This document shows positions 4,769-7,240 of a stretch of 64,000 bases of DNA, one piece after another. Each line of letters begins with the position of its first letter. The stretch's first letter is position 1. The position numbers were made by a program, and so were the translations under genes. This DNA is from Escherichia coli (GTDB taxonomy: Bacteria; Pseudomonadota; Gammaproteobacteria; Enterobacterales; Enterobacteriaceae), in assembly GCF_003334355.1 (NCBI RefSeq), contig NZ_QOWP01000007.1; one strand, written 5' to 3'. The notes under the pieces are model-generated. The model saw only the letters and a program-made list of their open reading frames with translations, made no database searches and was not told where the DNA came from.

Positions 4769-7240
4769 ATGAGTAAAGTCTTTATTTGCGCCGCTATTCC
4801 TGACGAACTGGCAACAAGGGAAGAAGGCGCTGTGGCTGTAGCCACAGCCATTGAAGCTGGCGACGAACGCCGTGCTCGAGCAAAATTTCACTGGCAGTTC
4901 CTGGAACATTATCCGGCTGCTCAGGACTGCGCTTATAAATTTATTGTCTGCGAGGATAAACCTGGCATACCCCGCCCTGCCCTCGATTCATGGGATGCTG
5001 AATATATGCAGGAAAACCGCTGGGATGAGGAGTCTGCTTCTTTTGTCCCGGTTGAGACTGAATCCGATCCGATGAACGTCACTTTTGACAAGCTGGCCCC
5101 TGAAGTACAGAACGCTGTCATGGTTAAGTTCGACACATGTGAAAACATCACCGTTGATATGGTTATTAGCGCACAGGAATTGTTGCAGGAAGACATGGCA
5201 ACATTCGACGGACATATCGTTGAAGCGTTGATGAAAATGCCAGAAGTTAACGCCATGTATCCGGAGCTTAAGTTGCACGCCATTGGGTGGGTTAAGCATA
5301 AATGTATTCCTGGTGCTAAATGGCCCGAAATTCAGGCAGAGATGCGCATCTGGAAAAAACGTCGCGAAGGTGAACGCAAGGAAACCGGAAAATACACGTC
5401 TGTTGTTGATCTCGCCCGCGCCAGAACCAATCAACAGTACACTGAAAATTCAACAGGAAAAATCAGCCCGGTCATTGCTGCCATTCATCGCGAATACAAG
5501 CAGACATGGAAAACACTGGATGACGAACTGGCCTACGCTCTCTGGCCTGGTGATGTGGATGCCGGAAACATTGACGGCAGCATCCATCGCTGGGCAAAAA
5601 AAGAAGTTATCGACAACGACCGCGAAGACTGGAAGCGTATCTCGGCATCAATGCGCAAACAGCCTGATGCCCTTCGCTACGACCGCCAGACTATTTTTGG
5701 CCTTGTCCGTGAGCGTCCGATCGACATTCACAAAGATCCCATAGCACTGAACAAATATATCTGCGAATACCTGACGACAAAGGGCGTGTTTGAGAATGAA
5801 GAAACAGACCTGGGCACTGTTGATGTTCTCCAGTCATCAGAAACACAAACTGATGCAGTGGAAACTGAGGTATCTGATATCCCAAAAAATGAAACCGCGC
5901 CGGAAGCTGAACCATCTGTAGAGCGTGAGGGGCCGTTCTATTTCCTCTTCGCAGATAAGGACGGAGAAAAATACGGTCGCGCAAACAAACTTTCTGGTCT
6001 GGATAAGGCACTGGCTGCTGGCGCCACTGAAATCACAAAAGAAGAATATTTTGCCCGAAAAAATGGCACATACACGGGCTTACCGCAAAATGTAGATACC
6101 GCTGAAGATTCAGAACAACCAGAGCCGATAAAAGTTACCGCTGACGAAGTAAACAAAATTATGCAGGCAGCCAATATCAGCCAGCCTGACGCCTATAAGT
6201 TGCTTGCTGCATCACGTGGTGAATTTGTTGAAGGGATTAGTGACCCGAATGATCCGAAATGGGTTAAGGGGATCCAGACCCGCGATTCTGTGAACCAGAA
6301 CCAGCATGAATCGGAACGGAACTACCAAAAAGCGGAACAAAACAGCACAAATGCGTTACAAAACGAGCCAGAAACGAAACAGCCTGAACCAGTGGCGCAA
6401 CTGGAAGTGGAAAAAGTCTGCACCGCCTGCGGTCAGACCGGCGGCGGCAACTGCCCTGATTGTGGCGCGGTGATGGGCGACGCAACATACCAGGAAACAT
6501 TCGATGAAGAGTATCAGGTTGAAGTTCAGGAAGATGATCTGGAGGAAATGGAAGGCGCTGAACATCCACACAAGGAGAACACTGGCGGCAATCAGCATCA
6601 CAATAGCGATAATGAAACTGGCGAGACGGCAGATCACTCAATTAAGGTGAACGGTCATCACGAAATCACATCCACCAGCAGGACGTGTGACCATCTAATG
6701 ATCGACCTTGAAACCATGGGAAAAAATCCTGATGCCCCGATCATCTCAATAGGTGCAATATTTTTCGATCCGCAAACCGGAGATATGGGATCGGAATTTA
6801 GTAAGACTATCGATCTGGAAACTGCTGGCGGAGTCATTGATCGGGACACCATTAAATGGTGGCTTAAGCAATCACGCGAAGCGCAATCTGCCATTATGAC
6901 CGATGAAATCCCGTTAGATGATGCACTGTTACAATTGCGGGAATTTATCGACGAAAACTCCGGTGAATTTTTTGTTCAGGTTTGGGGAAATGGAGCCAAC
7001 TTCGACAACACGATTTTGCACCGTTCATACGAACGGCAGGGGATCCCCTGCCCGTGGCGTTACTACAACGATCGCGATGTACGCACAATCGTTGAGCTGG
7101 GGAAAGCCATAGACTTCGATGCCAGAACGGCTATTCCATTCGAAGGTGAGCGCCATAATGCACTTGATGACGCCCGTTACCAGGCAAAATACGTTTCAGT
7201 TATCTGGCAAAAACTGATCCCGAGTCAGGCTGATTCTTAA
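4769..7240 (+). CDS. ydfE: Prophage exonuclease, intact YdfE-like, 823 aa: large N-terminal region, acidic linker, Cys4 zinc ribbon, C-terminal DnaQ-like DEDDh 3'-5' exonuclease domain
   Basis: Single uninterrupted ORF. C-terminal motifs MIDLET (Exo I), WGNGANFD (Exo II), HNALDDARY (Exo III). Zinc ribbon CTACGQTGGGNCPDCG. Sits at the lambda exo position upstream of xis-int. Confidence 0.7.
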   Translation: MSKVFICAAIPDELATREEGAVAVATAIEAGDERRARAKFHWQFLEHYPAAQDCAYKFIVCEDKPGIPRPALDSWDAEYMQENRWDEESASFVPVETESDPMNVTFDKLAPEVQNAVMVKFDTCENITVDMVISAQELLQEDMATFDGHIVEALMKMPEVNAMYPELKLHAIGWVKHKCIPGAKWPEIQAEMRIWKKRREGERKETGKYTSVVDLARARTNQQYTENSTGKISPVIAAIHREYKQTWKTLDDELAYALWPGDVDAGNIDGSIHRWAKKEVIDNDREDWKRISASMRKQPDALRYDRQTIFGLVRERPIDIHKDPIALNKYICEYLTTKGVFENEETDLGTVDVLQSSETQTDAVETEVSDIPKNETAPEAEPSVEREGPFYFLFADKDGEKYGRANKLSGLDKALAAGATEITKEEYFARKNGTYTGLPQNVDTAEDSEQPEPIKVTADEVNKIMQAANISQPDAYKLLAASRGEFVEGISDPNDPKWVKGIQTRDSVNQNQHESERNYQKAEQNSTNALQNEPETKQPEPVAQLEVEKVCTACGQTGGGNCPDCGAVMGDATYQETFDEEYQVEVQEDDLEEMEGAEHPHKENTGGNQHHNSDNETGETADHSIKVNGHHEITSTSRTCDHLMIDLETMGKNPDAPIISIGAIFFDPQTGDMGSEFSKTIDLETAGGVIDRDTIKWWLKQSREAQSAIMTDEIPLDDALLQLREFIDENSGEFFVQVWGNGANFDNTILHRSYERQGIPCPWRYYNDRDVRTIVELGKAIDFDARTAIPFEGERHNALDDARYQAKYVSVIWQKLIPSQADS

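Follow-up and report, generated by a model that had tools for sequence, protein, structure and literature searches.

What is a large exonuclease gene doing near the slot in which lambdoid phages carry their recombination genes, when no annealing protein accompanies it? This question is raised by a 64,000-nucleotide stretch of Escherichia coli DNA (hereafter the window; contig NZ_QOWP01000007.1 of assembly GCF_003334355.1), where an open reading frame (ORF) at 4769..7240 on the plus strand starts with ATG and encodes a protein of 823 residues. Our analyses liken the product to a DexA-type exonuclease tethered to the chassis of RecE, and make it a member of both the PF16473 and the YdfE family. 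It is a four-part mosaic, in which a folded scaffold is followed by a largely disordered RecE-like segment, an acidic flexible linker and a C-terminal DEDDh domain. The parts of the gene are listed below with their support in brackets, where pLDDT is the predicted local distance difference test of an AlphaFold2 (AF2) model and dN/dS the ratio of non-synonymous to synonymous substitution rates.

4769..7240, plus strand: complete scaffold-DEDDh exonuclease gene, the intact form of K-12 ydfE (ORF call)
4769..5503, plus strand: module N1, YdfE_N type, residues 1-245; a ferredoxin-like alpha/beta part, then a helical part
5504..5803, plus strand: module M, YdfE_C or RecE-middle type, a helical domain, residues 246-345 (PRK09709 and BLASTP alignments; pLDDT 94-98; dN/dS 0.20)
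5804..5923, plus strand: acidic disordered linker, residues 346-385 (pLDDT <50; dN/dS 0.75)
5924..6088, plus strand: conserved beta/alpha mini-domain, residues 386-440 (pLDDT ~80; dN/dS 0.08)
6188..6631, plus strand: segment common to Rac RecE, residues 474-621, with the GEFVEGISDPNDPKW motif, the Cys4 ribbon and acidic linker (72% identity)
6218-6259, plus strand: GEFVEGISDPNDPKW motif, residues 484-497 (family alignment)
6419..6466, plus strand: Cys4 zinc-ribbon-like motif CTACGQTGGGNCPDCG, residues 551-566 (motif position in the translation)
6467..6688, plus strand: acidic disordered linker before the nuclease domain, residues 567-640 (pLDDT <50; dN/dS ~1)
6692..7207, plus strand: DEDDh 3'-5' exonuclease domain, residues 642-813 (PF16473; dN/dS 0.17)

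A first-pass annotation, made from the sequence alone, had described a DnaQ-like DEDDh exonuclease domain at the C-terminus, and this description is confirmed both by the positions of the motifs and by a full-length family match. Residues 642-813 align with model positions 2-177 of 177 of the Rv2179c-like 3'-5' exoribonuclease domain, PF16473, at E = 1.2e-66, a value that over the full model places the match far beyond chance. The Exo I, II and III motifs are all present, with D646 and E648 in MIDLET (residues 644-649, nucleotides 6698-6715), D746 in the NFD of WGNGANFD (residues 739-746, nucleotides 6983-7006), and H796 and D801 in the HNALDD of HNALDDARY (residues 796-804, nucleotides 7154-7180). 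They align with the corresponding motifs of DexA, EcD-like and mEp460 proteins, and D646, E648, D746, H796 and D801 are the putative catalytic residues. Separate translation of the nuclease domain from Met644 was considered and rejected, as no Shine-Dalgarno sequence lies at a usable spacing, unlike in the stand-alone mEp460 gene. The two genes have a GCAGGA(C/G)GTG string in common; that it is a relic of an ancestral ribosome-binding site is speculation.

The closest solved structures by sequence (phmmer against the PDB) are 8KEL/8KEN, at E = 3.6e-8, which represent the DNA exonuclease DexA of phage T4 and its S87A/D90A mutant (NAR 2025, PMC12153337). Whether queried with the whole protein or with the domain alone, the PDB returned no structure but DexA, and Rv2179c itself gave no phmmer match there at E up to 10. 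The same paper implicates W152 and D169 of DexA in recognition of 5-hydroxymethylcytosine (5hmC), and reports an E. coli homologue, EcD (HAK9828821.1), which digests the DNA of T4 but leaves unmodified double-stranded DNA (dsDNA) undigested at 25 °C, and which gives cells protection against the phage. We recovered an EcD-like protein, of a family nearly identical to EcD, by means of the published forward primer; the published reverse primer is one base off that locus. The recovered protein has 189 residues, carries Ala78 as published, and is 37% identical to residues 644-816 of the window protein (E = 3e-36). Tyr766, aromatic but not Trp, aligns with W152 of DexA, and D169 falls outside the aligned region. 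The EcD-like gene (L030:6401-6991, minus strand) is among the early genes of a P2-like prophage, beside genes for a DNA methyltransferase, a gpA-like nickase and an integrase; a prophage origin of EcD is not mentioned in PMC12153337.

The N-terminal ~550 residues had been described as lacking any assignable motif, a view now superseded by the RecE and YdfE homology that profile and BLASTP searches, and Pfam matches on relatives, reveal. The NCBIfam RecE model PRK09709 aligns residues 246-625 with profile positions 271-602, at a whole-protein score of 277 bits, far below the curated cut-off of 1269. Against the 1,048-residue RecE of phage Rac-SA53, BLASTP finds 72% identity between residues 474-621 and RecE residues 471-611 (E = 1e-62), together with a weaker match of residues 262-336 to RecE residues 295-368. 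In Rac RecE, this stretch with its Cys4 ribbon and acidic linker directly precedes the nuclease domain. The ribbon and linker reported in the first-pass annotation are present (residues 561-600 contain 35% Asp plus Glu and no Lys or Arg), but are therefore not particular to the 823-residue protein. The likeness ends at both flanks: there is no Pfam match to PF06630 at the extreme N-terminus, where a different module is found, and the RecE nuclease region (RecE residues 612-1048) gave no phmmer match, nor did the Pfam scan report DUF3799 or a RecE nuclease domain.

That different module is the one known from ydfE. K-12-like genomes retain nucleotides 1-767 of the gene at 99.7% identity, in the same dicB-ydfD setting, and then run into the insertion sequence IS2; this K-12 fragment is ydfE, a truncated remnant of the exonuclease gene. 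PF27430 (YdfE_N) and PF27432 (YdfE_C) are recorded on relatives that share modules N1 and M, and were not reported for the query by the Pfam scan used. Since the ribbon segment is the RecE pre-nuclease segment and the N-terminus is a YdfE/RecE scaffold, the protein can be described as a nuclease-swapped relative of RecE. The family as such is already catalogued; it is this relationship that the first-pass annotation missed.

Within the RecE-like segment, the Cys4 motif also occurs in RecE and in a protein of Shigella phage 75/02 Stx, and is missing from many family members; the Pfam evidence for a ribbon is a weak DZR match on a homologue (E = 0.52). The GEFVEGISDPNDPKW region forms the best-conserved 20-residue block of the family alignment, inside a stretch that is otherwise predicted to be disordered, and the motif is kept even in members without the zinc ribbon, making it a candidate short linear motif for partner binding.

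Structure prediction of the N-terminal region, proposed as a check in the first-pass annotation, yielded a folded N1 module, middle domain and mini-domain. The AF2 model, which covers residues 1-640 and was built on a 71-sequence alignment, has pLDDT >90 for residues 1-205 and 245-340 and ~80 for residues 390-435; it predicts disorder for residues 227-235, 348-385, 439-456, 498-546 and 567-640, and confidence is low at the Cys4 ribbon (about 50-63). The mini-domain carries the motif GPFYF...GRANK...EITKEEY.ARKNG, which is also seen in family members with other C-terminal modules. A segment-by-segment comparison with the allele of phage Evi (L008:5001-7481) gave dN/dS values of 0.08 for N1, 0.20 for the middle domain, 0.08 for the mini-domain and 0.17 for the DEDDh domain, as against 0.75 for the first linker and 0.97 for the ribbon plus acidic linker. 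The folded modules are thus all under purifying selection, and the linkers behave as spacers. In the same comparison, dS ranges from 0.09 to 1.1 between segments, a roughly tenfold spread that points to recombination within the gene. The 813R8 allele (L003:5194-7635) is nearly identical from about residue 460 on and unrelated over the N-terminal 245 residues, which, taken with the dS spread, indicates that recombination has broken the coding sequence internally, where modules meet.

The scaffold defines a narrow family. When residues 1-640 were searched exhaustively against 1.84 billion representative proteins, only 243 relatives emerged at E <= 0.001, and Foldseek against AFDB50 returned only Enterobacteriaceae proteins of the same family, annotated as exonuclease or exodeoxyribonuclease VIII. 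We mapped the modules of this family by local phmmer on 150 representatives and by Pfam on 39 long members. The N-terminal module is of either the YdfE_N type (PF27430) or the RecE type (PF06630), and is followed by a homologous YdfE_C/RecE-middle domain and then by a largely disordered segment with GEFVEGISDPNDPKW and an optional ribbon. To this scaffold is attached one of five C-terminal modules: the DEDDh domain; the RecE/DUF3799 PD-(D/E)XK nuclease; a Rad52-like domain of ~275 residues with the motif KKSLTDAxKKALSxLGFSADV; a short tail alone; or, in one case, an in-frame RecT. Both N-terminal types are found paired with both nuclease types. Among the 39 long members, Pfam reported PF06630 Exonuc_VIII in 18, DUF3799 in 9, the Rv2179c-like domain in 5 and RecT in 1.

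Two individual fusions were also observed. In P0207, a RecE scaffold is fused in frame to RecT just past the start of the ribbon. In P0122 (527 residues), a YdfE-type scaffold is joined at about residue 385 straight to the DEDDh domain, which removes the mini-domain, the GEFVEGISDPNDPKW motif, the ribbon and the linker.

What lies downstream follows the C-terminal module. The PD-(D/E)XK forms precede recT in both loci examined, those of Rac and P0132, the downstream product at the P0132 locus being 39% identical to RecT. The DEDDh forms precede xis-int directly in 7/7 loci (the window, L001, L002, L003, L008, L009 and L012); DEDDh-xis-int loci include HannyBb, vB_EcoS-813R8, Evi, PPompW and the P0129 locus, three being viable phages. 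In 2,560 of 5,426 complete E. coli genomes, a query that runs from the 3' end of the gene into xis matches without a break. We found no recognisable annealase in the complete genome of the viable phage HannyBb, where a hidden one was also sought among the unannotated ORFs and rejected. Given the seven annealase-free loci and the 2,560 genomes with the xis junction, the missing annealase is a fixed property of the DEDDh variant and not a local loss. Downstream of the Rad52-like form come a Sipho_Gp157 gene and int, and downstream of tail-only forms (L013-L015, protein P0127) only xis-int. Such scaffold-only relatives consist of RecE_N or YdfE_N, the middle domain, with or without the ribbon, and the short tail QQLTIAAL.GLCANPA, and have no enzyme domain. 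In Shigella phage 75/02 Stx, a tail-only form (L006:3068-5116) annotated 'exodeoxyribonuclease VIII' lies directly upstream of gam-bet-exo.

In the window, the gene is surrounded by a Qin-type lambdoid prophage, in the order repressor, ydfA, ydfB, ydfC, DicF, dicB, ydfD, exonuclease gene, xis, int, rspB, rspA. The neighbouring features are as follows.

2622..3029, plus strand: DicA-like repressor gene, head of the operon (PHROG transcriptional repressor/regulator; RefSeq helix-turn-helix protein in a near-identical locus)
4073..4124, plus strand: DicF small RNA (Rfam RF00039, 76.7 bits against a gathering score of 48)
4299..4487, plus strand: dicB, cell-division inhibitor (annotation of the near-identical locus L001; PHROG 1251)
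4484..4675, plus strand: ydfD, directly 5' of the exonuclease gene (L001 annotation; PHROG 1092)
7313..7564, plus strand: excisionase gene xis, directly 3' of the exonuclease gene with nothing between (PHROG 539)
7584..8879, plus strand: integrase gene, the end of the prophage, adjoining rspB (PHROG 1)
9067-10110, minus strand: rspB, chromosomal, with rspA beyond (ORF call)

The gene thus belongs to the early-left operon, close to where lambdoid phages have their recombination genes, in agreement with the lambda-exo-like location first proposed for it. The PHROG matches of the operon ORFs likewise uphold the statement that no Bet/RecT/Erf-like protein is encoded between dicB and xis, and over the wider interval from the repressor gene to xis no annealing-protein family was matched, the ORFs there matching only small PHROG families without known function. 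No dedicated promoter was found on the plus strand just upstream of the gene, near 4676-4768. The DicF gene, ~650 nucleotides upstream in the same operon, is intact. When compared with Qin of K-12, the ydfE, xis and int genes of the window prophage are free of interruption by insertion sequences.

The gene is widespread. At >=80% coverage (at least that fraction of its length) it is found in 3,537 of 5,426 complete E. coli genomes (~65%), at a median of 2 places per genome, and copies with 84-99% identity occur in the viable phages HannyBb, PhiR42_1, Tritos, mEp460_ev081 and Evi. It is frameshifted in PPompW phages, and many database entries of the family are fragments. PHROG 2082 ('exonuclease') matches residues 1-822 of the 823, and RefSeq uses the names 'exonuclease', '3'-5' exonuclease' and '3'-5' exoribonuclease domain-containing protein'. 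The common database label 'exodeoxyribonuclease VIII' is misleading.

How might such a protein work? On the strength of sequence comparisons, we tentatively regard a scaffold-tethered 3'-5' DNA exonuclease, acting early in lytic growth and processing DNA ends without an annealase of its own, as its most likely role. As part of the repressor-controlled early-left operon, the gene would be co-transcribed with dicB, xis and int, and its product would act after induction or infection; the dicA-dicB system is established as a DicA-controlled early operon that is expressed upon induction. The scaffold would carry the C-terminal module to a common target, most plausibly DNA ends, intermediates of recombination or replication, or a host factor that sits on them. 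The DEDDh domain, on its flexible tether, would then take nucleotides off DNA 3' ends by two-metal-ion catalysis, with His796 as the general base. Together with host recombination functions, this could provide stand-alone end processing, for example the trimming of 3' tails or flaps or the widening of gaps. T4 DexA acts in this way in intron homing.

Three lines of evidence argue for a role at DNA ends: all the alternative modules of the scaffold act on DNA ends or single-stranded DNA (ssDNA), the closest characterised relatives of the nuclease act on DNA, and RecE performs better in end-to-end recombination at full length than as the nuclease domain alone (reviewed in PMC11611040). DNA as the substrate is also favoured by the setting of the stand-alone domain in Vibrio phage H188 and Proteus phage Isfahan, where its neighbours are genes of replication and recombination. 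That the gene is functional is indicated by its presence in viable phages and by dN/dS values of 0.08-0.20 in the folded modules versus 0.75-0.97 in the linkers. Because no annealase is ever encoded beside the DEDDh form, it is not a two-component recombinase of the Red/RecET type. The first-pass annotation had left recombination, end processing and an anti-defence role all open; this is still fair, although the choice now narrows toward end processing without being settled.

Several points weigh against end processing. A 3'-5' polarity leaves 5' overhangs, which are unsuited to annealases or RecA loading, so that a constructive role in recombination is not obvious. The 37%-identical, stand-alone EcD is reported to degrade 5hmC DNA and to protect from T4, which suggests a different biology, and the stand-alone domains near a phosphatase gene in mEp460 and 118970_sal3, described below, hint at nucleotide metabolism. 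The PF16473 family carries an exoribonuclease name. No protein of known function resembles the scaffold in structure, which makes its target a guess, and the tail-only scaffolds, with neither enzyme module nor partner, may point to a function of the scaffold other than delivery. Finally, we found no functional study of the 823-residue protein in the literature on ydfE/Qin, on Rv2179c with phage, on the RecE N-terminus or on RecE with zinc.

A broader proposal is that the N-terminal region of RecE and YdfE serves generally as a delivery platform for whichever DNA-transaction module is fused to it, be it a 5'-3' nuclease, a 3'-5' nuclease or a Rad52-like annealase; we consider this possible, if rather doubtful. 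Such a platform would have one common target, either the DNA end or a host factor such as SSB, the replisome or RecBCD, and would also act alone beside gam-bet-exo in Stx phages. The DEDDh form would then represent single-polypeptide, annealase-independent end processing in a large share of E. coli prophages.

The behaviour of EcD underlies the alternative that the protein is an HREX-type nuclease of inter-phage competition or defence, whose DEDDh domain degrades the 5hmC-type DNA of superinfecting T-even phages while the scaffold only modulates it. The reported digestion of T4 DNA, the sparing of unmodified dsDNA at 25 °C and the protection from T4 (PMC12153337), together with the similarity of the A78-bearing EcD-like protein and the aromatic Y766 at the position of DexA W152, all speak for it; nevertheless, we judge it unlikely. 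The gene sits between dicB and xis in a repressor-controlled early-left operon with no promoter-like site nearby, and from what is established for the dicA-dicB system it should therefore be silent in a lysogen. PADLOC defence models gave no match, EcD is itself encoded in the early region of a P2-like prophage rather than in a defence island, and the residue equivalent to W152 is Tyr and not Trp. Moreover, the fusion to a RecE scaffold common to nucleases and a Rad52-like domain would be left unexplained, and the claim for EcD comes from one study alone.

It is improbable, in our estimation, that the protein is a nucleotide-scavenging exonuclease that turns ssDNA or oligonucleotides into mononucleotides for phage replication, as T4 DexA does in the breakdown of host DNA. 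A scavenging role is ascribed to DexA in PMC12153337. In addition, stand-alone DEDDh domains of 190 residues, with 56-59% identity, occupy the same last slot before xis/int in mEp460 (L005:4998-5570) and Salmonella phage 118970_sal3 (L018:2998-3567), in an operon that also encodes a deoxyribonucleoside 5'-monophosphate (dNMP) phosphatase and a DUF2303 protein. However, scavenging leaves the RecE-type scaffold unexplained, and no endonuclease partner is encoded nearby in the window operon or in the HannyBb genome. Nor are temperate lambdoid phages known to break down host DNA wholesale.

We would give a similarly small chance to a 3' exoribonuclease that trims or degrades RNA, for instance host or phage transcripts or small RNAs such as DicF. 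The best Pfam family is named for Rv2179c-like 3'-5' exoribonucleases, RefSeq often uses the corresponding name, and DicF is encoded 650 nucleotides upstream in the same operon. The nearest characterised relatives, DexA and EcD (37%), are nonetheless DNA exonucleases, Rv2179c was not retrieved from the PDB, and the fusion partners and alternative modules of the family all act on DNA.

A canonical RecE-like recombinase, with its annealing partner encoded elsewhere or supplied by another prophage such as Rac, is very improbable. The RecE scaffold is held in common, many E. coli strains harbour several lambdoid prophages and the gene has a median of 2 places per genome; but the nuclease is of the opposite polarity class and another fold, with no phmmer match to the RecE nuclease and 277 against 1269 bits, while the complete HannyBb genome has no annealase and the adjacency to xis is kept in 2,560 genomes. 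A decaying remnant without current function, as the IS2-cut K-12 copy, the frameshifted PPompW copies and the many fragmentary database entries might intimate, is scarcely credible given the intact ORF in the window and in the 3,537 of 5,426 complete genomes (>=80% coverage), its presence in viable phages, and dN/dS values of 0.08-0.20 across the folded modules, which contradict decay.

The gene is among the most widespread of E. coli prophage genes and often multicopy, yet it is labelled 'exonuclease' or, wrongly, 'exodeoxyribonuclease VIII'; the annotation can now be corrected, as the protein is not RecE and its polarity is probably the opposite. A nuclease-swapped RecE relative also explains the origin of the orphan gene ydfE of K-12. 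The N-terminal 600 residues of RecE stimulate linear-linear recombineering and have lacked an explanation; they become a comparative problem, for which nature offers module swaps that carry either kind of nuclease, a Rad52-like domain or no further module. Were the scaffold a delivery platform, comparing these swaps would open a decades-old question about the RecE N-terminus to experiment, and if its target is DNA ends or a host factor, recombineering tools could make use of it. If instead the protein resembled EcD in function, a large proportion of E. coli prophages would be armed with a nuclease against T-even phages.

Compared with lambda Red and RecET, the 823-residue protein belongs to the same lambdoid genome region, and a scaffold-only relative stands upstream of gam-bet-exo in phage 75/02 Stx; unlike them, it has no annealase gene and its exonuclease is of the opposite polarity class. 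Rv2179c of Mycobacterium tuberculosis, the founder of PF16473, is alike in that the domain matches the family model over its full length, but Rv2179c comes from a bacterium and not from a phage and is described as an exoribonuclease, whereas the context of the 823-residue protein is DNA metabolism. T4 DexA and EcD (HREX) belong to the same DEDDh family and have conserved catalytic motifs; they are stand-alone proteins of 227 and 189 residues, while here the DEDDh domain is fused to a 640-residue scaffold and Tyr766 takes the place of W152 of DexA. YdfE of the K-12 Qin prophage has the same YdfE_N/YdfE_C scaffold and dicB-ydfD context, with nucleotides 1-767 at 99.7% identity, but is truncated by IS2 and retains nothing from about residue 256 on, and hence neither ribbon nor exonuclease. 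Rac RecE occupies the same early-left slot after kil/dicB and, with its homologous middle domain and the 72% identity over residues 474-621, belongs to one scaffold family with the window protein. The two differ in the N-terminal module, which is PF06630 in RecE and YdfE_N here; in the C-terminal module, a PD-(D/E)XK 5'-3' nuclease in RecE and a DEDDh 3'-5' exonuclease here; and in the next gene, recT after RecE and xis after the gene described here. With its nuclease domain, its neighbour and its score against the curated model all departing from those of RecE, the 823-residue protein is a relative of RecE and not RecE itself.

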